From assembly GCA_021814695.1 (NCBI GenBank), contig JAKAHY010000003.1:20692-84691 (forward strand): a stretch of 64,000 bases of DNA, read 5' to 3'. Below the pieces are notes generated by a model. The model was not told where the DNA came from and ran no database searches. It saw nothing but the letters and a program-made list of their open reading frames with translations. Made by a program: the position numbers and the translations under genes. Numbering within the stretch: the first letter of the stretch is position 1; each line of letters starts with the position of its first letter. The DNA comes from a bacterium. Lineage in GTDB: Bacteria > Patescibacteriota > Minisyncoccia > UBA6257 > JAGOQP01. This document shows positions 4,280-43,049 of this stretch, one piece after another.

Positions 4280-5332
4280 ATGAGTTACGGATTATTTCTC
4301 GCTACGCTGATAGTTGTTCTTGGGGCCGCATTTGTAGCGGCGTACTTTTTGTTCGGAAAAAAGAACAAGGGAGAGGAAAAGACCCAGGATTCCGCCTTTC
4401 TTATGCTTCAAAATCAACTGAACGAAATAACGCGGGTTATGGACAGCAAATTGGGGGAATCACAGAAGGCCACAGTCAGCCAATTCCAGGAAAGTGCCAA
4501 AATAATCCGGGACGTGACCGAAAAATTAACCAAACTGGACGAGACCAACAAACAAGTTATAAATTTTGCCGACCAACTCAAGAATTTGCAGGATATTTTG
4601 AAAAATCCGAAACAGCGGGGAATTTTGGGAGAGTATTATTTGGAAACGGTTTTAAAAAATGTTTTTGCGCCCGGGCAATATCAGATGCAGTATGAGTTCA
4701 AGGATGGAGTGATTGTGGATGCCGTGGTATTTGTAAAGGATAAGATAGTTCCGATTGACTCAAAATTTAGCTTGGAAAATTACAACAGAATTTTGGAAAG
4801 CCGCACCGACGACGAGCGGGAAAGATATGAATCGGCATTTATCAGCGATTTGAAAACAAGAATAGACGAGACTTCCAAATACGTAAAACCCGAAGAGGGT
4901 ACGATGGAGTTTGCTTTCATGTTTATACCTTCCGAGGCCGTCTATTATGATTTGCTGATAAATAAAGTAGGAGCGCTTAAGGCCAATACGAGGGATCTAA
5001 TCGAATATGCCGCTCAAAAGAAAGTTATGGTTGTTTCGCCAACGACATTTCTGGCTTATTTGCAGACGGTTCTCCAGGGCCTTAAAGCAATGCAGATAGA
5101 AGAATCGGCAAAGGAAATCAGAAAAAGAGTTGAGGATTTAGGCAAACATCTGACGGCGTTTGATTCGTATATGGGAAAACTCGCCGGCCATCTGAGCACT
5201 ACCGTAAACACTTTCAATACTGCCCACAAAGAGCTTGGAAAAATAGATAAAGACGTTCTCAAGATAACCGGAGATTCGGGCGGAATAGAAATTAAGCAGA
5301 TTGAAAAGCCGACACTGTTTGACGAAGAATAA
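4280..5332 (+). CDS. rmuC: DNA recombination protein RmuC (short paralog, 350 aa)
   Basis: N-terminal TM helix, coiled-coil region, and the RmuC core FMFIPSEAVYYDLL...VMVVSPTTFLAYLQTV. Confidence 0.8.
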   Translation: MSYGLFLATLIVVLGAAFVAAYFLFGKKNKGEEKTQDSAFLMLQNQLNEITRVMDSKLGESQKATVSQFQESAKIIRDVTEKLTKLDETNKQVINFADQLKNLQDILKNPKQRGILGEYYLETVLKNVFAPGQYQMQYEFKDGVIVDAVVFVKDKIVPIDSKFSLENYNRILESRTDDERERYESAFISDLKTRIDETSKYVKPEEGTMEFAFMFIPSEAVYYDLLINKVGALKANTRDLIEYAAQKKVMVVSPTTFLAYLQTVLQGLKAMQIEESAKEIRKRVEDLGKHLTAFDSYMGKLAGHLSTTVNTFNTAHKELGKIDKDVLKITGDSGGIEIKQIEKPTLFDEE

Positions 5333-9397: not shown

Positions 9398-9730
9398 ATG
9401 AAAGAACTTGCCGGTTCCGAGCGGGCGCCGATGCCCGAACGGGAAGCAATTCGAAAAGAATTGGAGGCGCTCATTCAGATTGAAAATAATCCTCACTTAA
9501 AATCGCTTAATATAAGCGAAATAGGTGATGAAGAAATAGAACTGTTTGGAAAATATCTGAAAGGCTCGCTTGGGGAAATTGAATTAAAAATCCGGATGGA
9601 AGCCATATCCAAAGAGCTTCATTCCAAAGGCATTGGCAGCGAAAAAATCCTTGACGACTCACGGATGAATCTTTTAGCATATCTTTTGAACAAAACAATT
9701 CTTTCAAAAGTTGAAAATAAGCAGAAATAA
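9398..9730 (+). CDS. Hypothetical protein (110 aa)
   Basis: ORF only. Confidence 0.4.
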   Translation: MKELAGSERAPMPEREAIRKELEALIQIENNPHLKSLNISEIGDEEIELFGKYLKGSLGEIELKIRMEAISKELHSKGIGSEKILDDSRMNLLAYLLNKTILSKVENKQK

Positions 9731-9736
9731 AATCAA

Positions 9737-9761
9737 AATCCCGCTTAAAGCGGAAGGGTGC
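9737..9761 (+). repeat. 25-nt exact copy of the sequence spanning the tRNA-Ser 5' flank plus its first 10 nt (AATCCCGCTTAAAGCGGAAGGGTGC). The second copy is at 9948-9972
   Basis: Direct repeat seen in the sequence. Followed by a ~140-nt GC-rich segment (9762-9900) with long-range complementarity (CTGAAGCT / AGCTTCAG). Confidence 0.8.
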
Positions 9762-9962
9762 CCGCCTTGCGCCACCGCTGAAGCTAAGGCGGCACGTGGT
9801 CGCAAACCTCTTTCGCGTAAAGCTTCAGAGGTCACGGAATGCTACGGCGGGCAGGCAAGAGTTAGAGATGGAGAGTTCGCATAGTGGTCTAGTGCGCAAG
9901 ATTGTTCCCGATTTATCTGAAATTTTAAAAATGAAGTTATAAATCGCAATCCCGCTTAAAGC

Positions 9963-10049
9963 GGAAGGGTGCAGGAGTGGTTTAACTGGTGGTCCTGGAA
10001 AGACCATGTGCCAGAAATGGCACCGCGAGTTCGAATCTCGCCCCTTCCG
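9963..10049 (+). tRNA. tRNA-Ser (anticodon GGA), type II with a long variable arm, no encoded CCA
   Basis: Manual fold. Acceptor GGAAGGG/CCCUUCC, D-stem CAG/CUG, anticodon stem UGGUC/GACCA with loop CUGGAAA, variable stem GUGCC/GGCAC, T-arm GCGAG-UUCGAAU-CUCGC, discriminator G. Confidence 0.85.
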
Positions 10050-10053
10050 CTTT

Positions 10054-10141
10054 GTGCGGGAGAAAGCGTGTGTGGGGTAAAACCCACCGAGAGTTCGAAT
10101 CTCTCACCCTCCGCCATGTACGGGAGAAAGCGCGTGTCCCG
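10054..10141 (+). repeat. tRNA-like fragments: a ~60-nt acceptor/T-arm minihelix (…GAGAGUUCGAAUCUCUCACCCUCCGCCA) and a truncated second copy of its 5' 25 nt (10117-10141)
   Basis: Similarity to the tRNA-Ser 3' half (GAGTTCGAATCTC…CCTCCGC). Direct repeat TGTGCGGGAGAAAGCGTGTGTGGGG / TGTACGGGAGAAAGCGCGTGTCCCG. Confidence 0.6.
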
Positions 10142-10156
10142 ATAAATTAAAATTGA

Positions 10157-10186
10157 GAATCCCTGCCTACCGGTAGGCAGGGATTC
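10157..10186. repeat. Perfect 30-nt palindrome GAATCCCTGCCTACCGGTAGGCAGGGATTC
   Basis: Direct reading. It lies at the distal end of the tRNA-fragment cluster. Confidence 0.8.
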
Positions 10187-10267
10187 TAAGGAGGAGCGAA
10201 GCGACCACGTGAGATTCCCTCATCTTACTCATGTGATTTTTTATTTCAAAATATTTAATGTTATAAT

Positions 10268-16006: not shown

Positions 16007-17752
16007 ATGAGCTGGATAAAAAGCACCGCCGGTCTGGTTTGGAGTAAGGCAATAGCGCATAAATTTATAGCATTTATCATTATCGTCGCTGTTGTCGGCG
16101 GAGGATACTACGAATACAAACATTTAACTGCGGGAACGGTGACGACTCAGTATGTTACTTCGGCCGCGGAGAAAGGAACTCTTGTTGTTTCTGTTTCGGG
16201 AAGCGGCCAGGTTTCGGCTTCCAATCAGACCAATATTCAGGCGCAGGTGTCGGGAATAGTTTCCAGCGTTCCGGTAACCGATAACCAGAAAGTTAAAGCC
16301 GGACAAATCCTTGTGATCTTGGATACGACAAATGACGAAAGGGCTGTCCGCAATGCGCAATCCAGTTTGGAAAATGCGCAACTGGCATTACAAACTCTTT
16401 TACAGCCGCCAAGTACGTCTACATTGCTTCAATCCCAGCAATCAGTGGTTCAATCCCAGCAGTCTCTTCAGAACGGACAAAATAGTCTAGCTTCGGATTA
16501 TACGAGCGCTTACGCCGACGTCTCGAATGTTTTTATTGACCTTTCCGGGGTCATGGCCGGACTGAATAATGTTTTGTACAGTACGAGCATTAACAAAATT
16601 CAGGCCAATGTTGACGCGTACACAAATCTGATAGCCGATATCAATGCCAATGCCACTCAATATCATGACAGCGCCATATCCGGATATCAGGCAGCCTATG
16701 CCGCATACAATCAGGCTTTGGCGGATTATAAAAACTCGAGTATAAACTCCAGCACTTCAACAATAGAATCTTTACTCTCCGAAACATACGGTACGCTCAA
16801 AATAGTTTCTACCGCCAACAGCAATGTCAAAAATTTGCTGGACTTGGTCAACACAACTTTGCAGCAGCAGGGGAATTTAAAAATTCCGGCTCAGTTGAAT
16901 GTGGACGAAACGAGCATGCAGTCTTATATCTCGACGACAAATAATCATCTCCAGACAATTTTACAGATTCAAAATTCTATTCAATCCGATAAGCAGGCGA
17001 TAACCATCGGACAAATTTCGGTAAAACAAACAGCCGCAGCTCTTGAACAGCTTCAGAGCGGACCGACTCAGCTTCAGATTCAAACTCAGAAATTGTCGGT
17101 GACTCAGGCGCAAAATGCGCTCTCGGACGCAAAAGAAAATCTTAACAACGATTATGTTAGGGCTCCTTTTGACGGAATTATTACCGACATAACCGCCCGC
17201 GTGGGACAGCCGGCAAGTGGTACTCTGGCGGTTCTTGTCAGCAATGCTCAGCTGGCTCAGGCGACCCTCAACGAAGTGGACGTGGTTAATGTTAAAGTCG
17301 GCCAGCAGGCGACCGTGACTTTTGATGCTCTTCCGGATATGACGCTTACGGGAAAAGTATCCGAAGTTGATACTATAGGCACCGTTGTCCAGGGAGTTGT
17401 GAGTTATAACGTTCAGGTAGCGTTGGACGTTTCGAATGATCAAGTCAGGCCGGGGATGAGTGATACTTTGGCGATAATTACCAATGTAAAACAGGATGTT
17501 CTGCTTGTTCCCAATGCCGCAATCAGCACCAAGAGTGACGCCTCATATGTCCAGGTTTTGGGCGCGGATGGATTGCCGACACAGGTGGAAGTAACGACCG
17601 GATTGGCAAACGATACCCAAACCGAAATTCTTTCGGGAATTAATGAGGGAGACAAAGTCGTAACCAGAACAATTACATCAACCGCAACGACCCCGACAAC
17701 GCAATCTTCGGGCGGGTTGGGCGGAATTAGAATTCCGGGAATCGGGCGATAA
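16007..17752 (+). CDS. HlyD/MacA-family periplasmic adaptor (membrane fusion protein), with long coiled-coil
   Basis: N-terminal TM, lipoyl/biotinyl-like motifs (VSGIVSSVPVTDNQKVKAGQILVILD; YVRAPFDGIITDITARVGQ). Confidence 0.82.
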   Translation: MSWIKSTAGLVWSKAIAHKFIAFIIIVAVVGGGYYEYKHLTAGTVTTQYVTSAAEKGTLVVSVSGSGQVSASNQTNIQAQVSGIVSSVPVTDNQKVKAGQILVILDTTNDERAVRNAQSSLENAQLALQTLLQPPSTSTLLQSQQSVVQSQQSLQNGQNSLASDYTSAYADVSNVFIDLSGVMAGLNNVLYSTSINKIQANVDAYTNLIADINANATQYHDSAISGYQAAYAAYNQALADYKNSSINSSTSTIESLLSETYGTLKIVSTANSNVKNLLDLVNTTLQQQGNLKIPAQLNVDETSMQSYISTTNNHLQTILQIQNSIQSDKQAITIGQISVKQTAAALEQLQSGPTQLQIQTQKLSVTQAQNALSDAKENLNNDYVRAPFDGIITDITARVGQPASGTLAVLVSNAQLAQATLNEVDVVNVKVGQQATVTFDALPDMTLTGKVSEVDTIGTVVQGVVSYNVQVALDVSNDQVRPGMSDTLAIITNVKQDVLLVPNAAISTKSDASYVQVLGADGLPTQVEVTTGLANDTQTEILSGINEGDKVVTRTITSTATTPTTQSSGGLGGIRIPGIGR

Positions 17753-17756
17753 AAAT

Positions 17757-18473
17757 ATGATTGAACTTAAAGGCGTAAATAAAGTTTATAAAACCGGAGA
17801 CGTAGAAACGTGGGCCTTAAAAGATATTTCATTCAAAGTGAATGACGGAGAATTTATTTCCATTATGGGGCCTTCGGGTTCGGGAAAATCAACGCTGATG
17901 CACATCATCGGAGCGTTGGATACTCCCACAAGCGGCGAGTATCTTCTGGACGGCAAGGATGTTTCCAAAATGGCCGACGACGAGTTGGCCGATATCCGAA
18001 ACGATAAAATCGGATTTGTTTTTCAGCAGTTTAATCTTTTACCAAGAATCACGGTTTTTCGTAACGTTATGCTTCCGCTTATATATGCCGGGACTCCAAA
18101 AGAAGCGCGCGAAGAATCGGCGCGTAAAGCTTTGATTTCGGCCGCGTTGCCGGAAAATTGGTGGACTCATCATTCCAACCAGCTTTCGGGAGGACAGATG
18201 CAACGTGTGGCTATTGCCAGAGCATTGGTCAATAATCCGACGATAATTTTAGCCGATGAGCCGACGGGAAATTTGGATTCCAAAACCGGAGAAATAGTTT
18301 TAGGCACATTTCAGAAACTTCACGAACAGGGGCGCACAATAGTTTTGATTACCCACGAACTTTATGTTGCCGAACACGCCGAGAGAATCATTCACATTGT
18401 TGACGGCCAGGTAAAATCCGACAGCAAGAGCCATCCCCGAAGAAAAATATCAATGAAAGATTACAAAGATTAA
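17757..18473 (+). CDS. ABC transporter ATP-binding protein (MacB/LolD type)
   Basis: [36 protein letters not shown]. Confidence 0.93.
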
Positions 18474-18482
18474 CACCCAAAT

Positions 18483-19706
18483 ATGGAAATATCGGAATTA
18501 TTACAAGAAGCATTTTCAGCCGTGACGCTCAATAAGGCGCGCTCGGGTTTGACGATTTTGGGTATAGTCATCGGAATCGGTTCGGTTATTGCCATGATCT
18601 CCATCGGCCAGGGGGCTCAGGGTTCCATTACTTCAAGTATTCAATCTATCGGCTCCAATCTTATTTTGATTACGCCCGGATTTCAGCGGACTCCCGGAAG
18701 CCAGGTGAGCGCCGGCCGCGGGAGTGCCGAAACTTTGCGTCAGGAAGACGCCGACGCCATCGCCAACCAGGTATCAATGATACAAGCAGTTGCTCCCGAA
18801 ATAACCCGTCGCTATCAGATTACGGCATTGGGTAAAAACACGAATACCTCCGTTGTCGGAACCGTTTCCAGTTATCCGGAAGTAAGAAACATTCAGATAG
18901 ATTTGGGAAATTTTATTACCGACCAAAACGTAAAGGACGGTTCCAAAGTGGCCGTGCTGGGTCCGACTACCCGGGACGATCTTTTCGGTACCGGCGTGGA
19001 CCCAACGGGAAAAACCATCCGTATTAATAATATAAATTTCCAGGTGGTCGGAGTTACCGTAGCTAAAGGTGGAAGCGGATTTGGGAGCCAGGATGATATG
19101 ATATTTGTTCCGATTTCAACGGCTCAAAGATATTTGGAAGGGGATACTTATGTAACCACAATCAGCGTCGAGGCGCAGGATGCGCAATCGATGACTCAAG
19201 TTCAGGATCAGATAACCAGCCTGCTTTTGGAAAGGCATCATATTTCCGATCCGACTCTGGCGGATTTTCAGGTATTAAACCAAACCGATATTCTTTCGAC
19301 GGCATCGACCATTACCAATACCTTCACTATTCTCTTGGCTTCAATTGCAGGAATTTCTTTGATTGTCGGAGGTATCGGAATCATGAATATGATGCTCACA
19401 ACCGTTACCGAGAGAACGCGTGAAATAGGATTAAGAAAAGCCATCGGCGCCAAGAAGCGGGATATCAGCACTCAGTTTCTGATAGAGTCGGTGATGCTGA
19501 CTTTCTTGGGTGGTATAGTGGGAATTATATTAGGCTGGATGCTTTCAATGCTGGTAACTTATTTTGCGGGTATTACCACGAGTATTTCCTGGTGGTCAAT
19601 TCTGCTGGCATTTGGAGTGTCGGCCGGAATCGGAATCGTATTCGGATATTATCCGGCCCGTCGTGCGGCCTCTCTTAATCCGATAGAAGCTTTGAGATAC
19701 GAATAA
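18483..19706 (+). CDS. ABC transporter permease, MacB/FtsX family
   Basis: MacB_PCD-like periplasmic domain plus a C-terminal FtsX 4-TM segment. Confidence 0.88.
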   Translation: MEISELLQEAFSAVTLNKARSGLTILGIVIGIGSVIAMISIGQGAQGSITSSIQSIGSNLILITPGFQRTPGSQVSAGRGSAETLRQEDADAIANQVSMIQAVAPEITRRYQITALGKNTNTSVVGTVSSYPEVRNIQIDLGNFITDQNVKDGSKVAVLGPTTRDDLFGTGVDPTGKTIRINNINFQVVGVTVAKGGSGFGSQDDMIFVPISTAQRYLEGDTYVTTISVEAQDAQSMTQVQDQITSLLLERHHISDPTLADFQVLNQTDILSTASTITNTFTILLASIAGISLIVGGIGIMNMMLTTVTERTREIGLRKAIGAKKRDISTQFLIESVMLTFLGGIVGIILGWMLSMLVTYFAGITTSISWWSILLAFGVSAGIGIVFGYYPARRAASLNPIEALRYE

Positions 19707-24313: not shown

Positions 24314-24704
24314 TTCCGGCCTCCTTTTGAAGTTCTAAACTGTTTAAAGTATAGCATAAAATTAAGATTTGTCAATAAGGTGTGATTAATTACTATTAAC
24401 TGTTTACTATTAACTGATTACTTGTTATCATTCAATTACAACTTAATAGAAGTTATCAAGAGTGGCGGGGAGGGAATTGGCCCCATGATCCGCCCAGCAA
24501 CTTGTCTTAGGTCTCGACGCTTAGGATAAAGTGCTAAATCCAATCCCCGAAGGCGTACTCGTCCTGAGCTCGCCGAAGGAGAGAGATAAGGTAGGTCGAT
24601 TTTTAATGCCTTTAAACTCTTTCCTTCTCGGGAGAGAGTTTTTCTTTGCCTCGTCGAAGCTTTAGCGAAGGCGGGTATTTATTATCCTTTCGGGCAATGG
24701 CTGT

Positions 24705-25216: not shown

Positions 25217-26182
25217 ATGCTTAACGAAAAAATAAGAACCTGCGAATACGTCTCCCCAAAACATCCAGATAAAATCTGTGACCAAATTGCCGATGCTATT
25301 CTGTCCGCTTATCTGAAAAAAGACAAAAAAGCGCGGGTGGCGGTGGAAGTTATGGGCGGGCACGGAGTGATAAATATATCGGGAGAAATAACCAGTAAAG
25401 CGAAAGGCATAAAAATACGAGATATAGTAGAGAAAGTGATATATGAGGGAACCGATATAGATAGAGATAGATTGAGATACGGTGGAGATAATATAAAAAA
25501 TAGAGATAAATTAAAACACAATAGATACAAAATCAATATAAACATTACTCATCAAAGCCCGTTTATTGCGCATGGAGTGGATACCGGCGGAGCGGGAGAT
25601 CAGGGAGTTATGGTCGGCTATGCCTGCAACGAGACCAAATCGCTGATGCCTCTGGAATACGAACTGGCCAAAAATTTGTGCCTGAATATTTACAAAAAAT
25701 ATCCTTATGACGGAAAAACTCAGGTAACTATAGACGGCAAAAAAGTTACGGCAGTTGTCGCCAGTTTTCAAAACACCAAAACTCCGGAATTGGAAAAATT
25801 GGTCAGGCGGCTCATAAAATCGGAAAAATATTTTATCAATCCTGCGGGGGAATGGCCGGTCGGAGGATTTGACGCCGACAGTGGGCTTTCGGGAAGAAAA
25901 ATTGTAGTTGATGCTTACGGACCAAACGTTCCGGTCGGAGGCGGAAGTTTTGCCGGCAAAGACCTGACTAAAGTAGACCGAAGCGGAGCGATGATGGCCC
26001 GAAAAATTGCCGTTGAGCTTCTAAAAAAGCACAAAGCCAAAGAGGTGCTGGTGAAACTGGCTTATGTAATTGGCGTACAACAGCCGGTAATGGCAGTGGC
26101 TTTAGCTGATGGAAAGTTGATTGAAGTAAAAGGCAGGGATTTGAGTACGAAGGGGATAGTGGAAACTTTGAGTTTTATCTGA
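25217..26182 (+). CDS. metK: S-adenosylmethionine synthetase, unusually short (321 aa), with a low-complexity insert encoded by GATA-rich DNA
   Basis: HPDKICDQIADA, GAGDQGVMVGYA, and GGGSFAGKDLTKVDRSGAMMARKIA are MetK motifs. Confidence 0.82.
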   Translation: MLNEKIRTCEYVSPKHPDKICDQIADAILSAYLKKDKKARVAVEVMGGHGVINISGEITSKAKGIKIRDIVEKVIYEGTDIDRDRLRYGGDNIKNRDKLKHNRYKININITHQSPFIAHGVDTGGAGDQGVMVGYACNETKSLMPLEYELAKNLCLNIYKKYPYDGKTQVTIDGKKVTAVVASFQNTKTPELEKLVRRLIKSEKYFINPAGEWPVGGFDADSGLSGRKIVVDAYGPNVPVGGGSFAGKDLTKVDRSGAMMARKIAVELLKKHKAKEVLVKLAYVIGVQQPVMAVALADGKLIEVKGRDLSTKGIVETLSFI

Positions 26183-26221: not shown

Positions 26222-29200
26222 ATGCCCCAAAAGATCTCAGATTATATAACCGAGGTATCAGATAAATATAAAACTGGCCGTGCCGGAGAGCATGCTTATA
26301 GGCCCACTTTTGAAAAGCTCATTAAGTCGATAGATCCAAAACTTTCGATCATTAACGATCCGAAACGTACAGAACACGGAGCGCCTGATTTTATATTTGT
26401 AAGGGGAGACTTGATAGCGGGCTATGTTGAGACAAAAGATATAGATGAGGATCTTGATAAGACTGAAAAATCAGAACAGATAGAAAGATATTTAGGTTAT
26501 TCAAATCTAATTCTCACTAATTATCTCGAATTTCGTTTTTTTAGAAACGGAGAACATTATGGCGAGCATATTATTATAGGGAAGATAATTGACGGAGTCG
26601 TTAAAATTCAAGAAGATCAGATCAGTTCTTTGGAAGATGTTATTTTTGATTTTTTATCTGCTAAGCCAGAAGCTATAAAAAGTGGAATTCGTCTGGCAAA
26701 AATTATGGGAGGTAAGGCGCGCCGTATAAGAGATAGCGTAAAACAATTTCTGACTAAAGAATCGGAAGATAATCAAGAACTCTCGCGCGTTTACGAAACA
26801 ATAAAAAAACTTCTGGTTCACGATTTAACTTCCGAATCATTTGCGGATATGTACGCTCAGACTCTTGTTTATGGGCTTTTTGTGGCTCGTTATTATGACG
26901 AATCTCCGGATAATTTTACGCGTCAAGAAGCGCGTGATCTTATACCGGCATCAAATCCATTTCTGCGTCATTTCTTTGACCATATTGCTGGTCCGGATTT
27001 TGATAAACGATTAGCTTATATAGTAAATGAACTTTGTGAGGTTTTCTCGGTCGCGGATGTTCAAGTTCTCATGAGTCAGTATTTTAAGCAAGAGGATTTG
27101 TGGGGGAAGATACATAAAGGCCCTGATCCGGTTATCCATTTTTATGAGGATTTTTTAAAAGAATATGATTCTGAATTGCGTAAAAAAATGGGAGCATTTT
27201 ATACTCCATTACCAGTTGTAGATTTTATTGTCCGGTCAGTTGATTATCTCCTCAAAAAAGAGTTTAACTTATCCGGGGGCCTTGCTGATGCTACTAAGAC
27301 AGGGTTAGTGCACAAAGTTCAAATTCTTGATCCAGCCGTAGGGACGGGAACATTTATTAGTGAAATTATTCGTACTATCTATCAAAGTTTTTCTGGGCAA
27401 GAAGGACGTTGGCCGACTTATGTTTATCATGATCTTTTGCCTCGTTTACATGGCTTTGAATTAATGATGGCGCCTTACACCATTGCCCACCTTAAATTTA
27501 GTATGATGTTAAAGGAGACGGGTTTTAAACACTTTAACAATAGTAGGCTTGGTATCTATCTGACAAATTCTCTAGAGAATGGAGACGCTCAAGATAGTTT
27601 ATTTACAGGATTTGGTTTTGCCGAGAGTATTGCGGAGGAATCCAAAGAGGCGTCAAAAATCAAGAATGAAAAACCAATCATGGTTGTTGTTGGTAACCCG
27701 CCATATAGCATTAGCTCCTCGAATAAGGGTGAGTGGATTCTAAATCTTATTAAAGACTACAAAAAAGACTTGGGCGAAAGAAAAATTAATCTAGATGATG
27801 ACTATATAAAATTTATTCGTTTTGCAGAACATTTTATAGAAAAAAATGGAAGTGGTATTGTAGCTATGATAACCAATAATTCATTTATTGATGGAATTAC
27901 TCATCGTCAAATGAGGAAGCATTTATTGGAAACATTCGACAATGTTTATATTCTTAATTTGCACGGCAATTCTAAGAAAAAAGAAAAGTGTCCAGACGGT
28001 AGTAAAGATGAGAATGTTTTTGATATTCAACAAGGCGTATCTATTTCAATTTTTGTAAGAAAAGAAGGCAAAAAACAAGAATTAGGAAAAGTATTCCACT
28101 CTGAATTATACGGCAGACGTCAAGATAAGTTTGAGAAACTTAATTCTTTTGATTTAGAAAACATAAAATGGCAAAGACTTAATACCATAGAGCCTTATTA
28201 TTTCTTTATCCCAAAAGATTTTAGTTTGAGTGATTCTTATGATAACTTTTTCTCTATAACAGATCTGTTCAAAATTTATTCAGCAGGGATAAAAACTAAA
28301 GTTGATAACATATCAATAGACTTTGAAAGAGAATCACTCGGGAAAAGAGTTGAAGACATACTTACAAATAAATATTCATTGCAAGAAGTCATTAAAAAAT
28401 TTAGCTTGAATCCAAAAACTACCTGGGAATACAACAATGTTCTGAGGGCGAGTTTTAACGATAAAGTTTTGTCTTTCTATGATTATAGGCCGTTTGATAG
28501 AAGATTTATCTACTATGATAAAAATTTTCTTTCCAGAAGTAGATCGCAAGTAATGGATAATTTTTTTAATAAAGATAATATAGGCTTAGAAACTTCACGT
28601 ATGGGTGATTACATTTTTATTTCTAAAAATATTTCAGACGAGCATTTTGTTTCAGATAATTCATTTAAATTTCCACTTTATCTGTACCTAGATAATGGTC
28701 AGCAAATATCCAATCTTAAAAATGAGATCGTGGGAAAAATTACAGGAATTACTGGCAAAGCAGCTCCCATAGATATTCTTGATTATATTTATGCAGTCCT
28801 CCATTCGCCTAATTATAGAAAAAAATATGAGGAATTTTTAAAAATTGACTTCCCGCGGATACCATATCCAAAAGACAGAAAAACCTTTGAGAAATTAGTG
28901 AGTTTTGGAAAAGAGTTGAGAGAACTGCATCTTTTAGAATCTACAAAGCTTAAAAACTTTATCACGACATTTCCAGAATCAGAAAGTGATCTCGTTGAGT
29001 CAAAATATCCAAAATATAAGGATGGGAATGTTTATATAAATAGTACTCAATATTTTGGTAATGTTTCAGAAGTTATCTGGAATTTCTACATAGGAGGATA
29101 TCAACCTGCTCAAAAATGGCTTAAAGATCGCCAAGGCCGAAAACTTTCAAATGAAGACATTGAACACTATCAAAAGATGATTGTAGCTTTGATGGAGACA

Positions 29201-29242
29201 GACGGGGTTATAAAAGAAATTGATAAAATTTATGTTCAATAA
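26222..29242 (+). CDS. Type IIG restriction-modification enzyme (MmeI-like PD-(D/E)XK endonuclease fused to a gamma-class N6-adenine methyltransferase and a target-recognition region)
   Basis: N-terminal PD…ExK (APDFIF…GYVETKD), MTase motif I (ILDPAVGTGTF), motif IV (VVVGNPPYS). 1006 aa. Confidence 0.8.
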   Translation: MPQKISDYITEVSDKYKTGRAGEHAYRPTFEKLIKSIDPKLSIINDPKRTEHGAPDFIFVRGDLIAGYVETKDIDEDLDKTEKSEQIERYLGYSNLILTNYLEFRFFRNGEHYGEHIIIGKIIDGVVKIQEDQISSLEDVIFDFLSAKPEAIKSGIRLAKIMGGKARRIRDSVKQFLTKESEDNQELSRVYETIKKLLVHDLTSESFADMYAQTLVYGLFVARYYDESPDNFTRQEARDLIPASNPFLRHFFDHIAGPDFDKRLAYIVNELCEVFSVADVQVLMSQYFKQEDLWGKIHKGPDPVIHFYEDFLKEYDSELRKKMGAFYTPLPVVDFIVRSVDYLLKKEFNLSGGLADATKTGLVHKVQILDPAVGTGTFISEIIRTIYQSFSGQEGRWPTYVYHDLLPRLHGFELMMAPYTIAHLKFSMMLKETGFKHFNNSRLGIYLTNSLENGDAQDSLFTGFGFAESIAEESKEASKIKNEKPIMVVVGNPPYSISSSNKGEWILNLIKDYKKDLGERKINLDDDYIKFIRFAEHFIEKNGSGIVAMITNNSFIDGITHRQMRKHLLETFDNVYILNLHGNSKKKEKCPDGSKDENVFDIQQGVSISIFVRKEGKKQELGKVFHSELYGRRQDKFEKLNSFDLENIKWQRLNTIEPYYFFIPKDFSLSDSYDNFFSITDLFKIYSAGIKTKVDNISIDFERESLGKRVEDILTNKYSLQEVIKKFSLNPKTTWEYNNVLRASFNDKVLSFYDYRPFDRRFIYYDKNFLSRSRSQVMDNFFNKDNIGLETSRMGDYIFISKNISDEHFVSDNSFKFPLYLYLDNGQQISNLKNEIVGKITGITGKAAPIDILDYIYAVLHSPNYRKKYEEFLKIDFPRIPYPKDRKTFEKLVSFGKELRELHLLESTKLKNFITTFPESESDLVESKYPKYKDGNVYINSTQYFGNVSEVIWNFYIGGYQPAQKWLKDRQGRKLSNEDIEHYQKMIVALMETDGVIKEIDKIYVQ

Positions 29243-29294
29243 AATAAAAATAATATAAATTTTAAATAAGTTTTGATGATGGTACGATAATTTT

Positions 29295-31454
29295 ATGAAA
29301 AAAATACAATTAAAATTAGCAAATTGCTACGGAATTAAGAAATTAGAAAGAGATTTTGATTTTTCGAATAACGGTACTTATGTAATTTATGCTCCCAATG
29401 GAGTTATGAAAACTTCATTTGCGAAGACATTTAAAGACTTAAGTTTAGGATTAAATTCTAAAGATTTGATTTTTCCAGAAATAGAGACGATCCGTGAGAT
29501 TAATAAAGAGAACAATACTAATTTGTCTAAAGAGGAAGTTTTTGTTGTAGAGCCATATAATGAGGATTTTAATTCAGAAAAAATATCTACCCTTTTGGTT
29601 AATAAAGAATTGAAAGGCAGATATGATAAAATCCATTTAAAAATTGATGAAGAAAAGAGCGGGTTACTAAAAGAATTAAAAAACTTATCTGGATTTCGAG
29701 ATGATATCGAAGAAGAAATTTCTCAAGCTTTTACAAGTGAGGACGATAGATTATTTGATTCTCTAGAAAGGGTGGAAAAAGAAGTTATGGATATTTCAGA
29801 ACCTGTGTATTCTGATATTTCTTATAAAGAGATTTTCAATGAAAAGGTTCTAAATTTTCTGATGACTAAGGATTTCAAAGAAAAAATTGAGCAATATATT
29901 AAAAAATATGACGAATTAATTGAAAGTTCAAAATATTTTAAAAAAGGTATATTTAATCATAATAATGCATCAGTTATAGCCAAGAGTTTAGTAGATAATG
30001 GTTTCTTTAAAGCACAACATTCCATTTCTTTAAATACAAGAGAAAGTAAAAATGAAATTTACACCAAAGAAGAACTTGAAAAAGTCATTGATGAAGAAAA
30101 AAACGCTATATTGAATAACCCTGATTTGGTGAAAGTTTTTGAAGAGTTGGACAGCAAATTAAAAGCTAATAAAGAATTGCGTGATTTCAGAGATTATTTG
30201 TTAAATAATCCAAAAATTTTACCAGAACTGAAAAATCTTGATAGTTTTCGACAAAAATTATGGGTATCCTATTTTAAGAGTCAAAAAGATTTATACGAGA
30301 GTTTCTTAAAGGAATACCATTCTGGAAAAAGTGAATTGGACAAAATAATAGAACAAGCTAAAACAGAAGCAACGCACTGGATGGATGTGATAGACATCTT
30401 TAATGAAAGGTTTTCAGTTCCGTTTAAGCTTAGTATAAAAAATCAGGGTGATGTTATTTTAAAACGAGATGTTCCTAGTATCGCTTTTATATTTAAAGAT
30501 TCAAATGGCGAAGTTCCTGTAGAAAAATTAAATTTACTCCAAGTATTAAGTAGCGGAGAGAAACGTGCTCTGTATATCTTAAACATAATTTTTGAAGTTC
30601 AAGCAAGAAAAGAAGAAAATCAGGAAACCCTATTTATTATTGATGATATAGCAGATTCTTTTGACTATAAAAATAAATACGCGATTGTTGAATATTTGAA
30701 AGATATTTCGGAAGAAACAAATTTTTATCAAATAATTTTAACTCATAACTTCGATTTTTTTAGAACCGTTCAGAGCAGGTTTGTTCCTTATGATAATTGT
30801 TTAATGGTTGAAAAAACAACTGAAGAATTAAAAATAGTAAAAGCAGATTATATAAAAAATCCATTCAAATACTGGATGAATCATTTAGATGATGATAAAA
30901 AATTAATAGCATCAATTCCGTTTGTAAGAAATCTTATTGAATACACAAAAGACACAAACGATGATGATTTTTTGAAATTAACATCATTATTACACGTTAA
31001 ATCAAATTCCGATTCTATTTTTAAAAGCGATTTACAAAATATTTATAAAAGTATATTTCCTAACTTATCACTAACCTTAATAGGTAAAGATGAAAAGGTT
31101 ATTAATTTAATTTTTAATTTAGCAGATACCTGTTTAACTGCGACCGTAGGCATAAATCTAGAAAATAAGATTCTTCTTTCTATTGCTATTAGATTGGTAG
31201 CGGAAAAATTTATTTTAAGTAAGATAACTGATAAAAGTGAGATTGTCGGAAAACAAACAAGGAAACTTTTTGAAAGATTTAGAAATGAATTTAATAAAGA
31301 TAATTTTGAACAAGAAAATATTAAAATACTAGAGCAAGTTAATCTTATGACTCCAGAAAATATACACTTTAATTCATTTATGTATGAGCCTATTTTAGAT
31401 ATGTCGGATGATCATTTGAAAAACTTATATAACGAAGTGAAAAAATTAAAATAA
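29295..31454 (+). CDS. SMC/OLD-like ABC ATPase (719 aa) with a degenerate Walker A and a ~390-aa helical insert between Walker A and the signature motif
   Basis: The N-terminus follows the OLD/AAA_21 pattern (MKKIQLKLANCYGIKKLE…YAPNGVMKTSFAKT). Signature LSSGEKRALYIL, Walker B/D-loop LFIIDDIADSFD, H-loop ILTHN. Confidence 0.65.
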   Translation: MKKIQLKLANCYGIKKLERDFDFSNNGTYVIYAPNGVMKTSFAKTFKDLSLGLNSKDLIFPEIETIREINKENNTNLSKEEVFVVEPYNEDFNSEKISTLLVNKELKGRYDKIHLKIDEEKSGLLKELKNLSGFRDDIEEEISQAFTSEDDRLFDSLERVEKEVMDISEPVYSDISYKEIFNEKVLNFLMTKDFKEKIEQYIKKYDELIESSKYFKKGIFNHNNASVIAKSLVDNGFFKAQHSISLNTRESKNEIYTKEELEKVIDEEKNAILNNPDLVKVFEELDSKLKANKELRDFRDYLLNNPKILPELKNLDSFRQKLWVSYFKSQKDLYESFLKEYHSGKSELDKIIEQAKTEATHWMDVIDIFNERFSVPFKLSIKNQGDVILKRDVPSIAFIFKDSNGEVPVEKLNLLQVLSSGEKRALYILNIIFEVQARKEENQETLFIIDDIADSFDYKNKYAIVEYLKDISEETNFYQIILTHNFDFFRTVQSRFVPYDNCLMVEKTTEELKIVKADYIKNPFKYWMNHLDDDKKLIASIPFVRNLIEYTKDTNDDDFLKLTSLLHVKSNSDSIFKSDLQNIYKSIFPNLSLTLIGKDEKVINLIFNLADTCLTATVGINLENKILLSIAIRLVAEKFILSKITDKSEIVGKQTRKLFERFRNEFNKDNFEQENIKILEQVNLMTPENIHFNSFMYEPILDMSDDHLKNLYNEVKKLK

Positions 31455-31470
31455 ATAATTAAAAGATTTT

Positions 31471-32880
31471 ATGACCATAATGATTTTACTAATAATAAAT
31501 ACTTTTGGAATCGCTCTTTTGACATTTCTGTTTTTTAAGAATAAACAATCTGATAATGCCGGCCAAATAACAAAAGCTGTTGAGATTTTATTTGATAGAA
31601 TGGATAAGGCTTTTAAGGAAGAAATGTCTCTAAATAGAAAAGAGTCGGCAGACTCAGAAAAAAGATTACGCGAAGAAATTTCTAGCTCATTTAAGGGATT
31701 TGGAGATTCGCTTGATAAAAGAATGTCCGAACTTGCTAGTACTCAAAATAAGAATTTTGAAGGATTTTCTATAAAACTTACAGAATTAATTGATAAGAAT
31801 GATACAAAAATAGAAAAAGTCAGAGAAACAGTTGAAAGAAAGCTTGAAAATATACAAAAAGACAACGGCGAAAAATTAGAAATGATGAGGCAGACAGTAG
31901 ACGAGAAGCTCCAATCTACCTTAGAGAAGAGACTGGGAGAATCATTCAGGCAAGTAAGCGACAAACTGGATTCTGTCCATGTCGGGCTTGGAGAAATGAG
32001 AAATCTGGCGTCTGACGTTGGTGGTCTAAAAAAAGTTTTAACAAATGTAAAAACACGCGGTATCTGGGGTGAGGCACAACTGGGTGCTTTACTGGACCAG
32101 GTATTATCTCCGGAACAGTATGCAAGTAACGTTGCAGTTAAGCGTGATGGCAGAGAAAGAGTAGAATATGCTATCAAATTACCAGGCACTAAAGAAGACG
32201 GAAGTGATCCCGTGTGGTTGCCTATAGATTCAAAATTTCCTCAAGAAGATTATGATCGTCTAATTAGCGCATACGAACAAGCAGATGCCAATGCAATTGA
32301 TGTAGCGTCTAAACAACTGGAGCTTAGGATTCGCAATGAAGCCAAAAGTATCAACGAAAAATATATTGATCCACCCAATACAACAGATTTTGCCATATTA
32401 TTTTTACCATATGAAAGTTTATATGCAGAGGTTATTAGGCGCCCCGGTCTCTGCGAAACAATTCAAAGAAGCTACAGGGTTACAATAACGTGTCCGTCAA
32501 CATTGGGTGCTTTATTAACCAGTCTTCAAATGGGATTTAAAACTCTTGCTATACAAAAGAGATCAAGTGAAGTGTGGGAAGTGCTCGGAGCAGTAAAAAC
32601 GCAATTTGGTAAATTTTCTAACTTGCTCGAAAAAACTCAAAGACAATTGAAAACCGTAGCTGGTACAATTGAAGAAGCTACTAAAAAAACCAAGACAATT
32701 GAGGGTAAACTAAGAAAAGTACAACAATTACCAGAATCTTTATCAATTAAGGTACTAAAAGGAGTGGAAGAGTTGGAAAATAGCCAGGAGGATGCAGAAG
32801 GAATAGAAAAGACGTCAATTTCTGAGACGCAAGAAGATTTTTCAGATAAAGAGATTAGATCAGAAGACCTACCGTTTTAG
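31471..32880 (+). CDS. rmuC: DNA recombination protein RmuC, second full-length paralog (469 aa)
   Basis: TM helix, coiled coil, RmuC core DFAILFLPYESLYAEVIRRPGL…RVTITCPSTLGALLTSLQMGF. Confidence 0.85.
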   Translation: MTIMILLIINTFGIALLTFLFFKNKQSDNAGQITKAVEILFDRMDKAFKEEMSLNRKESADSEKRLREEISSSFKGFGDSLDKRMSELASTQNKNFEGFSIKLTELIDKNDTKIEKVRETVERKLENIQKDNGEKLEMMRQTVDEKLQSTLEKRLGESFRQVSDKLDSVHVGLGEMRNLASDVGGLKKVLTNVKTRGIWGEAQLGALLDQVLSPEQYASNVAVKRDGRERVEYAIKLPGTKEDGSDPVWLPIDSKFPQEDYDRLISAYEQADANAIDVASKQLELRIRNEAKSINEKYIDPPNTTDFAILFLPYESLYAEVIRRPGLCETIQRSYRVTITCPSTLGALLTSLQMGFKTLAIQKRSSEVWEVLGAVKTQFGKFSNLLEKTQRQLKTVAGTIEEATKKTKTIEGKLRKVQQLPESLSIKVLKGVEELENSQEDAEGIEKTSISETQEDFSDKEIRSEDLPF

Positions 32881-35800
32881 GTATCATTCTTCAATAAATC
32901 CTCCTCAAAACTTTTGATTCCGTTGAAGCCCATTTCTGCGTATTTTGATATGTCCGGAAAGTCGAGATTTATTATTTTCTTATAAACAATGCCTATTAAG
33001 GCCTTTAGGCGCTCAACTTCTTGCGGATCTATGTCCAGTGTTAGCCCAACGAGTTCTTTATGAAGGGGTTCTATAAAGCTTATAACTCCTTTATTTACCG
33101 TATATTTATTTCCGAATGCTTTGGAGTTTTCTATAAGGAGTTTATAGAATATTAACTGATTACGGTTGCGCCAGGCCTTAATTTTTGCGTACTGGTCGGT
33201 TGGGGACCAGCTATCTATTGGTTTTCCGGTTTTAAAATCCTCAACTATCATTTTGTTCCCTTCGATTTTTATTTTATCTATTCTTCCTGTTATGGGCGTT
33301 CCGTCTATAATTGCCCCCTCCTTTTTGAAATCAAATTCACTCTTATCGTCAATTGAAAAAGATTTCTTCTTCTGATTATAAAAGTTTTCAATTGCTTTCT
33401 GTCCTCTTTGCAGTAGGAGATCAAAATCCTTTTGGTTGAGCCGTCCGTTTTTTAGGGATTCTTCAAACCAAATTAACACCTCTTTAGTCGGAGGTAGTTT
33501 TTTATTATTTTTTAGGTAGTTGTATGTGCGTTTGATAGTTTCATGAGCGGCCGATCCAAGAATGCCACTTGGGGTCTTTGGTTCAGGAAATAAAAGCAGA
33601 TTTTTTTCAAAGAAAGTTGCTGGTCCGCCATCAACAACATTTAAGAAATTCTGTAAATGAGTAACGTTGAGTTTATAGTCGTCCAAAATTGGTTTTAAAA
33701 GCGCTTTTTCTTCGGCTACAAAAGGGGGAGTGTGCAACATATTTAATTGATCAACTAGCATCTCTTCCGGAACTCGATTAATATCTTTTATTTCAATAAA
33801 TTCTGGTTCAAAAGATTTTAAAGCACCTTCCGGGGATATAAATCCAAGGCGAGAAGATTCTTTTCCCTTGTTGTCATATTTATATGATGTCAGATATAAC
33901 AATCTTTTGGCTCTGGTGATGGCAACATAAAAAAGTCGGAGTTGATCATCTATATTGTCTCCTGCTGGGCTGATGGGTAAATTCGATGGCAGGGTTATAT
34001 TATTTCTACCTCGTCCGGTTCCGGCCCAGGAATCTTCCTGGCAATTTAAAACAAATACGGCTTCAAATTCCAATCCTTTGGCTTTGTGTGCGCTCATCAA
34101 TTGGACCGCTTCGTTGGAATTAATAAAAGGACTGGTGTTATTTATGGGGAGGTTGTTTTTTGTGTGGATGTCAAAAAATTCAATCATCTCTCCAATATTT
34201 ACTCTTTTACCACGTCTATATTCTCTTAGGGATTCAATAAATGATTTTAATGAAGATAGAAAATTTAAATAATCTGCTCTGTGTTTGGTAAATTTGTCCT
34301 TGTTAAAATAATAAGATCTAAATGGACTAAACATATCATTGCTACCCGCAGTTTCTTCCTCGGTTTTTTCATCTGAAAGGATTTGCTGGGGTCCACCAAT
34401 GAGCTCCTGGAGAACTTCTTCTGCCGTTGCGTAAGTTGCTAGTCCTCCCAAGTTAATGAAAAATTCCGCTATGTCACTTAGCTGTCCTCCTAATTCTTTC
34501 ATAACCATAAGCCACGGCTTGTTTTCTTTTATAGCCTTTATAGAAAGCTCCCAAATCATTGATCGTTTTATATTCCAGAACGGATAGTTTAATATCTCCG
34601 GTAAAAAGTTATCGGCATCGTCCGATTTTTTCATTATAGAGTCAACAAATTTGGCCATCGTGATAAGTTCCAAAATGTGCGGTTCCTGCAAAACATTTTG
34701 CTGGCGTTCGTAAGCAATTGGAATTTTAGCCATGTGGAAATAAGGAGCTAGAGATTCAAGGTCTTTATGTTCGCGAGCGATAACGGCAATTTCTTTGGGG
34801 GATATGCCTTGTTCAATCAATTTTTTTATTTCGGTTGTTATCCAATGATATTCTATTTCTTTGGAAGCAAATTCTTTTGAATGGATTTTTCCATCTTTTA
34901 TATTTTTATTACTGGCGATCAGCTCTTTTTTTAATTCTGGAAAGATATTTTCAAGACGATTAACACCTTTTTTAATTATAAGTTTTGCTGCGTCTAATAT
35001 GTCTTGAGTTGATCGATAATTTTCTTTAAGAACTATTAGCTCTGGTTTGCGGTATGTGTTTTGAAAACCGCTGACGTTGGTAATTTCTGCCCCCTGAAAT
35101 TTGAAAATTGCCTGGTCATCGTCTCCGACAACCATTATATTGGGTCTGCCTTCGTTGACAGGGTTATCAGTTAGAAGCTTCAATAACCTCATTTGGGCAT
35201 CATTGGTGTCTTGAAATTCATCCACAAGAATATATTGGTAGCGTTCCTGTAAGTCCAGTTTTACGTTTAAATTGTTTTCGAGCACGGAGATTGCGTCCAG
35301 GATCATATCGTCAAAATCATAATATTCGTTTTCTCTCAACTTCTTCATATATTTTTCGTATATGTCGGCTAACGCCTCCATCCTTTCGATGTTTAAAAGA
35401 TCGGTGATATGCCTGAATCCATCCTCGCCTTTTTCTGTCCATTCATTTTTCCATTCTGTTACTGGGGATGTTGCATTCAAATCCTCGGCGTTTTTGACGG
35501 CTTGGGCGAGTGAGTACGCTAGTGATTGAGCAAAAGGTCTAAAGAAGCCCGGTAATTTTTTAGATTTAAAAGCGCCGATCTCCTTGGCGGCTGAAATTGC
35601 GGCAGGATATAATTTTTTTGAGATCCTGTCATTAAAAACAGATTTGATTATTGGGTCTGCATGTTCTATTTCTTTTTTATTTTCGGCTAATATAGTTTTG
35701 AATTCATCCGGAGTAAGCCCGGCTTTTTTAAGATATTCGATCGCCTTTTTTGTTTTATATAAGTAAGTAAATTGACCATTGAACTCTGATCGCAGGGGAT

Positions 35801-36203
35801 TATCATATGGAAGTTCGGTAAATATTTTTTCTAATATTTCTGTCTGTGTTATCTGGTCAGCAGGAAGAAGAGTGGCGCCATTATAAAAATATTCCGGATA
35901 ATAATTTATTATTTCAACTCCAAAACTATGAAAAGTATGGATAGAAACTCTGTATGCGTCATGGCCGATAAGACCAGCTAATCGGTTGCGCATATTGAAT
36001 GCGGCGGCGTCGGTAAATGTTAAACACAATATATTTCCTGGGGAGGCGTCAGTATTTTTTAAAATATTAGCCACACGCAAGCTCAGAAGCTCGGTTTTTC
36101 CGGATCCCGGCCCGGCTATAACCATCACGGGGCCATCTATGGTATCAACGGCCTGTTTTTGTTGTTTATTTAAATTTTTAATCCTATCTTCAAATGTGCT
36201 CAT
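32877..36203 (-). CDS. UvrD/PcrA-like superfamily-1 helicase fused to a C-terminal RecB-family PD-(D/E)XK nuclease domain (1108 aa)
   Basis: Helicase motifs: AGPGSGKT, DEFQDTN, VGDDDQAIFKFQGA, NYRST. Nuclease motif: GRIDKIKIEGNKMIVEDFKTGK. Confidence 0.85.
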   Translation of the reverse strand: MSTFEDRIKNLNKQQKQAVDTIDGPVMVIAGPGSGKTELLSLRVANILKNTDASPGNILCLTFTDAAAFNMRNRLAGLIGHDAYRVSIHTFHSFGVEIINYYPEYFYNGATLLPADQITQTEILEKIFTELPYDNPLRSEFNGQFTYLYKTKKAIEYLKKAGLTPDEFKTILAENKKEIEHADPIIKSVFNDRISKKLYPAAISAAKEIGAFKSKKLPGFFRPFAQSLAYSLAQAVKNAEDLNATSPVTEWKNEWTEKGEDGFRHITDLLNIERMEALADIYEKYMKKLRENEYYDFDDMILDAISVLENNLNVKLDLQERYQYILVDEFQDTNDAQMRLLKLLTDNPVNEGRPNIMVVGDDDQAIFKFQGAEITNVSGFQNTYRKPELIVLKENYRSTQDILDAAKLIIKKGVNRLENIFPELKKELIASNKNIKDGKIHSKEFASKEIEYHWITTEIKKLIEQGISPKEIAVIAREHKDLESLAPYFHMAKIPIAYERQQNVLQEPHILELITMAKFVDSIMKKSDDADNFLPEILNYPFWNIKRSMIWELSIKAIKENKPWLMVMKELGGQLSDIAEFFINLGGLATYATAEEVLQELIGGPQQILSDEKTEEETAGSNDMFSPFRSYYFNKDKFTKHRADYLNFLSSLKSFIESLREYRRGKRVNIGEMIEFFDIHTKNNLPINNTSPFINSNEAVQLMSAHKAKGLEFEAVFVLNCQEDSWAGTGRGRNNITLPSNLPISPAGDNIDDQLRLFYVAITRAKRLLYLTSYKYDNKGKESSRLGFISPEGALKSFEPEFIEIKDINRVPEEMLVDQLNMLHTPPFVAEEKALLKPILDDYKLNVTHLQNFLNVVDGGPATFFEKNLLLFPEPKTPSGILGSAAHETIKRTYNYLKNNKKLPPTKEVLIWFEESLKNGRLNQKDFDLLLQRGQKAIENFYNQKKKSFSIDDKSEFDFKKEGAIIDGTPITGRIDKIKIEGNKMIVEDFKTGKPIDSWSPTDQYAKIKAWRNRNQLIFYKLLIENSKAFGNKYTVNKGVISFIEPLHKELVGLTLDIDPQEVERLKALIGIVYKKIINLDFPDISKYAEMGFNGIKSFEEDLLKNDT

Positions 36204-43040: not shown

Positions 43041-43049
43041 TTTCGCAGC

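Follow-up and report, generated by a model that had tools for sequence, protein, structure and literature searches.

The subject of this report is a short, hairpin-bearing insert that lies within a tRNA-Ser gene of a patescibacterial genome and carries inside it a second, complete tRNA-Ser gene. The window, a 64-kb stretch of contig JAKAHY010000003.1 (assembly GCA_021814695.1), contains a single tRNA according to ARAGORN, a tRNA-Ser(GGA) at 9963-10050, which Rfam also recovers as a tRNA (RF00005, 50 bits at 9963-10049, threshold 29). All coordinates are window positions, and L-numbers such as L011 are the labels of comparison loci that were fetched. A reading of this locus made from the letters alone (hereafter the sequence-only reading) had listed a duplicated 5' segment, a GC-rich insert, tRNA 3'-half fragments, a palindrome and a further hairpin around the tRNA gene, and all of these features are present beyond chance expectation.

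Anatomy of the tRNA-Ser(GGA) locus

The gene at 9963-10049 (plus strand, as are all oriented features of this locus) has a cloverleaf with a class II variable arm, a GGA anticodon and G73 by both ARAGORN and Rfam, and is predicted to be the functional tRNA-Ser(GGA) gene of the window. Its anticodon loop reads CTGGAAA, without the TTG that precedes the insert. This inner, or cargo, gene is flanked by the severed 5' and 3' parts of an older tRNA-Ser(GGA). By nhmmer, the stretch 9870-9904 has homologues in the 5' halves (nucleotides 1-34) of tRNA-Ser(GGA) genes from many relatives, and it terminates in a TTG at 9902-9904, while nucleotides 35-73 are found at 10062-10113, in a sequence identical to the 3' part of the cargo in L194. 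When 9870-9904 and 10062-10113 are joined, ARAGORN calls a tRNA-Ser(GGA); the older gene is interrupted between anticodon-loop nucleotides 34 and 35 (TTG|GAAA) by the 157 nt of 9905-10061.

The insert begins with TTCC (9905-9908), followed by hairpin 1 (9909-9946), whose foot is formed by CGATTT and AAATCG, and by a CAATCC linker (9947-9952). Its left arm (9905-9962) is completed by a CGC-leader, CGCTTAAAGC at 9953-9962, which is also the 5' strand of hairpin 2. The intact tRNA comes next, and then a trailer ending in GCG and a terminal GGA. This right end, 10049-10061 (GCTTTGTGCGGGA), is the 3' strand of hairpin 2 and is complementary to the leader region 9950-9962 as part of a 20-nt inverted repeat with 90% complementarity, by which the acceptor stem is lengthened to approximately 20 bp. 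Folded as single-stranded DNA, hairpin 2 of the window has a z-score of -7.5.

Downstream of the insert, the arrangement is repeated in part. A 64-nt unit, 9998-10061, has a second copy at 10062-10125 (72% identity) and a third, cut short, that starts at 10126. The second unit ends at 10113-10125 in GCCATGTACGGGA, which fits the family right-end consensus GCCATGTGCGGGA and is the right end of an older element copy, and it is followed at 10126-10141 by GAAAGCGCGTGTCCCG. Aligned in register with 9998 and 10062, this is a truncated 3' part, from nucleotide 35 onward, that belonged to an even older tRNA-Ser(GGA). Because a second right end, GCCATGTACGGGA, is joined to GAAAG... at 10126, the split outer tRNA was itself once the cargo of an earlier copy that had split this even older gene, and this second right end with its further 3' fragment indicates at least one older round of insertion at the locus. 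The 3'-half fragments of the sequence-only reading are present downstream of the intact gene; they are 3' parts displaced when one tRNA gene after another was split, and matching 5' parts lie upstream.

The duplicated 5' segment reported earlier is also real. A 32-nt repeat (9730-9761 versus 9941-9972, 94% identity) includes an exact 23-mer, TCCCGCTTAAAGCGGAAGGGTGC, at 9739 and 9950, where shuffled sequences give an expectation of 0 matches. The first copy, 9730-9751, is a degenerate end of a left arm in which AAATCaaAATCC is followed by the hairpin-2 strand CGCTTAAAGC; next to it, 9752-9761 is the start (GGAAGGGTGC, 10 nt) of a tRNA-Ser of the cargo type, identical to 9963-9972 and cut at the D-arm. 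The D-arm position of this truncated copy is occupied by 9762-9869, which consists of a GC-rich insert (CCGCC...GGCGGG, 9762-9851), CAGGC and a decayed remainder. The whole of 9730-9869 is tentatively read as a further truncated element copy that was struck by a GC-rich hairpin insert.

An assembly artefact is ruled out, as contigs of other assemblies and other samples agree with the region at 100% identity, among them contig DAIENI010000001.1 (GCA_027341185.1), which also encodes the two flanking proteins, and a dozen others. In a second metagenome-assembled genome of the same species, GCA_027423305.1 (loci L002 and L006), contigs break at 9873 and 9897, inside the repeat cluster, which indicates that nested repeats of this type defeat short-read assembly. 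The neighbouring gene encodes an M48 peptidase, whose homologues bear Patescibacteria, Wolfebacteria or Paceibacterota names.

A family of hairpin inserts in tRNA genes

The M48 peptidase gene was used to fetch 80 species-representative loci. In approximately 60 of these a tRNA-Ser(GGA) is kept downstream of the peptidase gene, and in five (L011, L043, L056, L065 and L082) it carries the same insert at the same place. Metagenome contigs were scanned with a pattern of 25 bases, TTGTTCCCGAWTT-N15-45-AARTCGCAATCC, that includes the TTG (without it, the element core is CCCGATTT-N-AAATCGCAATCC), and at least 120 contigs matched. The family counts that follow refer to the 109 distinct copies found among the matches listed and the other fetched loci. 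An inner tRNA is present in 87 of these; the other 22 are cargo-free minis, 57-72 nt long, with a hairpin 2 reduced to CCCGC-NNN-GCGGG. Inserts measure 57-170 nt and contain no open reading frame (ORF).

The genes that are split belong to five isoacceptors. Besides Ser-GGA (TTG|GAAA), these are Ser-UGA (CTTG|AAA, between nucleotides 35 and 36), Ser-GCU (TTG|CTAA), Arg-GCG (TTG|CGGA) and Cys-GCA, the last with the element on the opposite strand (TTTTG|CAGAC). Among the matches listed, the inner and the split gene always agree in isoacceptor and orientation. In 61 of 66 copies, covering all five isoacceptors, the bases missing from the anticodon loop are found directly 3' of the element's right end, and exact in-silico excision restores a 7-nt loop in the same proportion. 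The cargo runs from tRNA nucleotide 1 to the discriminator, with CCA added in some copies. Nested copies comparable to that of the window occur in L127, L096 and L176; identical hairpin-1 subtypes are found with different cargos; and minis are also present in spacers without a tRNA, for instance in L204, upstream of a triosephosphate isomerase-like ORF.

At the junctions, CTTG|TTCC and GGGA|GAAA, no bases are shared, and this is the same across the 109 copies. Target duplication was found at no junction examined, nor are there long terminal inverted repeats, the only terminal symmetry of the element being TCCCG/CGGGA. A DDE transposon or miniature inverted-repeat transposable element was rejected as a candidate on the first of these grounds. 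A phage origin was rejected as well, the element pattern having no match in the viral contigs scanned. None of the models of Rfam 15 matches the element at E-values up to 10, and full-text literature searches found no description of it.

The two hairpins are conserved in shape. Hairpin 1 varies in sequence and length but keeps a constant fold, with a mean minimum free energy of -12 to -17 kcal/mol compared to -6 when the cores are shuffled; its energy lies below the shuffle mean in 106 of 109 copies. Compensatory changes are seen at all six of its base pairs outside the foot, which is fixed by the search pattern. In the hairpin-2 family, 94% of the cells are paired and 8 of 13 pairs show compensatory changes, a level reached by 0 of 500 shuffles. 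Uninterrupted tRNA-Ser genes show no leader-trailer pairing, from which it follows that the hairpin-2 stem belongs to the element. Furthermore, wobble pairs in hairpin 2 are biased towards G:T over A:C, 47:7 in sense copies and 7:1 in antisense copies, always as read on the element's own strand. We infer from this bias that the hairpins act as single-stranded DNA on one strand. By inspection, the CAA of the linker is complementary to the TTG of the target and the 5' TCC to the terminal GGA, a complementarity suggestive of guide-type recognition.

The heptamer GCGAAGC is enriched about 25-fold at the tips of hairpin 1 (about 7-12 loci), and GCGAAGC is an unusually stable DNA mini-hairpin. It also occurs in the window at 10196, within GAGCGAAGCGA. 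Apparent relatives of the element occupy other tRNA loops, where they follow GCATA (D-loop) or GGTT (T-loop), at L174:~3561 (minus), L151:4208, L163:241 (minus) and L138:5398 (minus); these have an altered start (TTAC or CCCC) and an altered linker (CAAC or CAGT).

A second set of observations concerns the two tRNAs at each insertion. Following exact in-silico excision, 20 of 71 outer tRNAs are callable and 51 are not, and 30 of 59 outer anticodon stems retain three or fewer of their five pairs. The outer tRNA of the window is 97% identical to the intact inner tRNA of L194, and the three differences between them are all helix-breaking, G5A lying in the acceptor stem and the other two changes in the anticodon stem. 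The split outer tRNAs are thus best read as decaying relics. The inner tRNAs share an identity of 0.65-0.79 with their own outer tRNA and of 0.85-1.0 with related inner tRNAs in other contigs; in the window the corresponding values are 0.66 and 0.85-0.88. An inner tRNA that resembles its counterparts elsewhere more than the gene surrounding it is not a local duplicate, and by these identities the cargo tRNAs are imported foreign alleles. For these comparisons the right end was defined by complementarity, as running ARAGORN on all possible splice ends proved too permissive. The possibility that loss of TTG renders the cargo immune to a further hit was rejected as a general rule, because the loop of the window (CTGGAAA) fits but only 11 of 79 cargos do.

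A proposed element that replaces the gene it splits

What is found repeatedly, then, is a conserved, structured and orientation-specific insert that causes no target duplication, lies preferentially after TTG and has a foreign, cognate tRNA aboard. We regard the locus as a nested stack, in the manner of Russian dolls, derived from small non-autonomous, hairpin-dependent insertion elements of Patescibacteria, and put the probability of this reading at about 0.65. An element consisting of 5'-TTCC, hairpin 1, CAATCC, hairpin 2 and GGA-3' would land immediately 3' of a target that is mostly TTG in the anticodon loop, with no target bases duplicated or shared, and would split the gene into 5' and 3' parts. 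A complete gene for the same tRNA isoacceptor would arrive in the tip of hairpin 2, and this imported copy would take over. The history of the locus would accordingly run from an oldest remnant at 10126-10141, through a previous gene that had once been cargo (9870-9904 and 10062-10113), to the live gene at 9963-10049. Movement may proceed as folded single-stranded DNA with an enzyme supplied in trans, as for IS200/IS605 or REP-type elements. Only cognate insertions may survive, or be possible at all, because only these leave a working copy of the tRNA: non-cognate hits in single-copy tRNA genes would be lethal, or else cognate specificity may arise by homing through the flanks provided by the half-tRNAs.

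By kind, this would be a small non-autonomous insertion element that restores its target, and the carriage of a complete replacement for the split tRNA gene is an unusual trait that is apparently undescribed. A bolder proposal, which we put forward tentatively and consider rather less probable than its opposite, is that these inserts constitute a previously unrecognised class of mobile element whose survival depends on supplying a substitute for the essential gene it destroys. A hairpin cassette guided to TTG would deliver a foreign allele, and its arms may guide a trans-acting single-strand nuclease/ligase or an RNA-guided enzyme. If so, the tRNA genes of Patescibacteria would be horizontally overwritten one after another, with the relics recording successive invasions. 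In its own right, the locus illustrates how carrying a working spare offers a selfish element a simple route into the single-copy essential genes of very small genomes, and it implies horizontal replacement of tRNA alleles, the inner gene being only 65-79% identical to the gene replaced. It also accounts for the fragmentary or duplicated tRNA pieces that annotation pipelines meet in Patescibacteria, and its nested relics amount to a readable invasion history. The 57-nt core, strongly conserved and covarying, suggests that an enzyme exists which acts on folded DNA or RNA by cutting in hairpin loops, and such an enzyme could serve as a site-specific tool.

The closest known systems are derivatives of IS200/IS605 that lack a transposase (PATEs) and the REP/REPIN sequences associated with RAYT, a Y1 enzyme of the HUH type. 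These too are small, non-autonomous and furnished with imperfect hairpins near both ends; they show no terminal target duplication and fold in a strand-specific manner. They insert in one orientation just 3' of a short specific sequence, TTAC for IS608 and TTGAT for ISDra2, and a comparable preference, mostly for TTG, may hold here. Unlike those systems, the present element has no Y1 transposase or RAYT that could be found, its right-end hairpin closes one base from the end, its two hairpins are unlike each other, the loops of tRNA genes are its targets and a whole tRNA gene occupies a hairpin tip.

Several points weigh against the proposed stack of insertion elements. Of the 64 ORFs of the window, none belongs to a Pfam transposase, recombinase or homing-endonuclease family, in agreement with the earlier statement that no integrase is present, and none is a Y1 HUH transposase (TnpA/RAYT). 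Furthermore, tblastn found no IS200-like TnpA in 1.4 Mb of loci, a weak negative given that the query was approximate. No two near-identical copies were found at different sites of one genome, such as recent transposition would be expected to leave. The preference for TTG is less absolute than it appears, as TTG precedes all 109 copies but is fixed in the pattern used for the scan; of the 15 credible copies recovered once this requirement was dropped, seven follow TTG (chance about 1/64) and the other eight follow ATG, CTG, GTT, TTA, CGG or ATA. Similarly, the outer six pairs of hairpin 2 served to locate the right end, and only the inner seven provide an unbiased test of its covariation. The stretch 9730-9869 does not fit simple nesting and requires an extra rearrangement. 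Finally, the reading does not account for the way in which five different tRNAs, each cognate to its target, came to sit in the tip of hairpin 2 on the same arms.

Homing is the strongest of the alternatives. Element and cargo would here spread only between alleles of the same tRNA gene, recombining through the half-tRNA flanks after a double-strand break made by a trans-acting nuclease, such as one of the small GIY-YIG enzymes frequent at these loci, or after DNA uptake, and the arms would serve mainly to destroy the nuclease site. Cargo and target would then be expected to be cognate and the cargo tRNAs to be foreign alleles, as they are. The precedent is the intronless homing of the free-standing Seg GIY-YIG endonucleases of phage T4, one of which, SegB, lies in the T4 tRNA gene cluster (PMC2330249). 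In both cases a selfish cassette swaps a sensitive for a resistant allele, and among relatives of the window GIY-YIG genes (PF01541) do occur beside or inside tRNA-Ser copies together with a duplicated tRNA 5' end, as in intronless homing. However, these genes occur at tRNA-Ser loci whether or not the element is there, and the window has none; the hairpin element has no ORF, is present where no GIY-YIG gene is nearby and has conserved, structured ends. Minis in non-tRNA DNA, and hairpin-1 subtypes shared between different cargos, require movement between unrelated sites, and the conservation and covariation of the arms exceed what disruption of a nuclease site would need. We consider homing to be unlikely, although it is the alternative to be taken most seriously.

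Removal of the insert as RNA, with both tRNAs functional, would make it a new type of bacterial tRNA intron with a tRNA embedded in it. Group I introns in tRNA anticodon loops, at 34/35 or 35/36, were recently reported to be common in Patescibacteria (PMC13011429), and in archaea split and intron-bearing tRNA genes have been linked to mobile elements (PMC3293823), so that both the phylum and the position, or the tie between tRNA disruption and a mobile element, are shared with the present case. Exact excision gives a 7-nt loop with the right anticodon, 20 of the 71 outer tRNAs are callable, and the near-symmetric termini, TCCCG...CGGGA, might let a structure-specific enzyme act in either orientation. 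Yet the remaining 51 cannot be called, half of the anticodon stems of outer tRNAs are broken, and the outer tRNA of the window carries three helix-breaking changes; with a spliced outer tRNA there would be no need for a cognate cargo. In Cys genes the element is antisense, and the wobble bias follows the strand of the element and not that of the tRNA. Nor does the insert resemble known introns: it is too small for group I (minis are 57 nt), it contains no group I core by Rfam (E-values up to 10), its exon ends in G and the insert in A, where a group I intron follows a 5' exon with a final U and itself closes with G, and by inspection the junction forms a symmetric 3x3 internal loop in place of a bulge-helix-bulge. 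Decay of the outer gene and an embedded cognate tRNA are likewise not features of those systems. The sequence-only reading had set against its own interpretation the case of relatives with the same arrangement and covariation supporting a single larger functional RNA, such as an intron-containing or permuted tRNA. Relatives do share the arrangement and covariation is present, but it is confined to the hairpins of the element while the outer tRNA decays, which argues against a spliced or permuted tRNA. An intron is, on this evidence, very improbable.

The interpretation originally favoured for the locus, that of scars left by repeated site-specific integration and excision at a tRNA gene, holds in part. 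Repeated site-specific integration is supported, but into the anticodon loop and not at the 3' end of the gene, and an origin as attL/attR-type scars of an integrase-mediated island is highly improbable. Prophages, integrative and conjugative elements and genomic islands that integrate into tRNA genes also use the anticodon-loop region in many instances and restore a working gene, and large serine recombinase genes adjoin the tRNA-Ser locus in L011, L105, L112, L174 and others, suggesting that the site is also used by integrating elements there. Such islands, however, carry only the 3' part of the gene, have an identical att core (6-8 bp) or central dinucleotide at both junctions and bring their own integrase gene. 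The present element, of 57-170 nt, carries a complete gene with both old halves displaced around it, a product that att recombination does not give, and the window encodes no recombinase. Because the junctions share neither a core nor a dinucleotide in any of the 109 copies, recombination by a tyrosine or serine integrase is excluded, as is duplication of the DDE type.

The GC-rich segment and neighbouring features

The GC-rich segment upstream of the split gene (G+C of 0.63, within an AT-rich spacer) contains the complementarity noted earlier, between 9764-9785 and 9821-9842 and between GCCCGCC and GGCGGGC, but it does not fold beyond the level of shuffles (z = +0.65 and -0.63). The ends of 9762-9851 resemble inserts of the form CCCCG...CGGGG|CAGGC that lie in the D-loops of tRNA fragments in L137, L182, L190 and L127, and, rather than an RNA gene, the segment probably represents a further small hairpin insert. 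The regular expression used for this D-loop family was too crude for a firm assignment, and membership of 9762-9851 stays tentative. The suggestion that 9762-9900 is an independent small RNA gene on a duplicated tRNA promoter, for which its high G+C and a weak promoter-like match at 9711-9739 might be cited, is the least probable of all, as this stretch has no match in Rfam, no homologue past its first 32 nt among approximately 200 related loci and no excess folding, and its last 35 nt are the 5' part of a tRNA. A perfect 11-nt complement links the GC-rich insert at 9793-9803 (CACGTGGTCGC) to the region before the terminal hairpin at 10201-10211 (GCGACCACGTG), with a chance expectation of about 0.07; no role was found for it.

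Other identities were considered for the RNAs of this region and rejected. A tmRNA or two-piece tmRNA (transfer-messenger RNA), considered for an outer RNA of approximately 365 nt with a T-arm and CCA, is contradicted by the lack of an ARAGORN call, of a G3:U70 pair and of a plausible tag frame, as well as by the variable arm of Ser type. Selenocysteine tRNA, RNase P, signal recognition particle RNA, 6S RNA, Y-RNA-like RNAs and known self-cleaving ribozymes have no Rfam match at E-values up to 10.

Downstream of the relics, the palindrome described earlier is perfect and extends over 32 nt (10156-10187; fold z = -6.0). It is a small repeat unrelated to the element. Its core belongs to a 20-nt repeat family, CCTGCCTRCCGGYAGGCAGG, with 20 copies in 1.39 Mb of related loci (for instance L098:6121, L142:1865, L179:3442 and L145:6907), several of them inside the D- or T-loops of tRNA fragments. 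The GCGAAGC at 10196 lies just downstream of it. The hairpin and T-run also noted earlier are confirmed at 10206-10245, where 10206-10213 pairs with 10228-10235 in an 8-bp stem followed by a T-run at 10237-10242. On the basis of its fold, this is the probable end of transcription of the cluster, and a consensus terminator scan did not call it because of its 14-nt loop.

The tRNA-Ser locus of related genomes is visited by further mobile genes. Small GIY-YIG genes (PF01541, approximately 85-95 aa) lie beside or inside tRNA-Ser in L088, L107, L137 and L169 and in the genome loci L008, L015, L018, L028 and L046, flanked by a duplication of 13-15 nt of the tRNA 5' end. In L088, L107 and L137 the reading frame enters this duplicated 5' end (…GGVA/GGFA), and the L088 cassette also brings a complete tRNA-Ser with inverted-repeat flanks. 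Large serine recombinases with Resolvase, Recombinase and Zn ribbon domains (PF00239, PF07508 and PF13408) are encoded at L011:5828-6613, L105:3475-5062, L112:910-2416 and L174:380-1952. The last 30 or so codons of these genes are antisense to the tRNA-Ser gene, which suggests that larger elements likewise use this tRNA as their attachment site. The window has neither a GIY-YIG nor a large serine recombinase gene. When 2028 ORFs from the surroundings of the elements were clustered in a guilt-by-association analysis, both types were also found at element-free tRNA-Ser loci, and neither is tied to the element.

Elsewhere in the window, a SAM-I riboswitch (49 bits) at 24450-24592 lies upstream of an S-adenosylmethionine synthetase ORF (25217-26182), with a gap of approximately 600 nt when only ATG starts are allowed. 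It is followed at 26222-36203 by a cluster with the appearance of defence and repair functions, comprising a Type ISP restriction-modification enzyme, an SMC-like ATPase, RmuC and a UvrD/PD-(D/E)XK helicase-nuclease; a second RmuC is encoded at 4280-5332. Two paralogous export operons, each composed of HlyD, ABC ATPase and MacB-FtsX genes, are located at 16007-19706 and 41475-45014.

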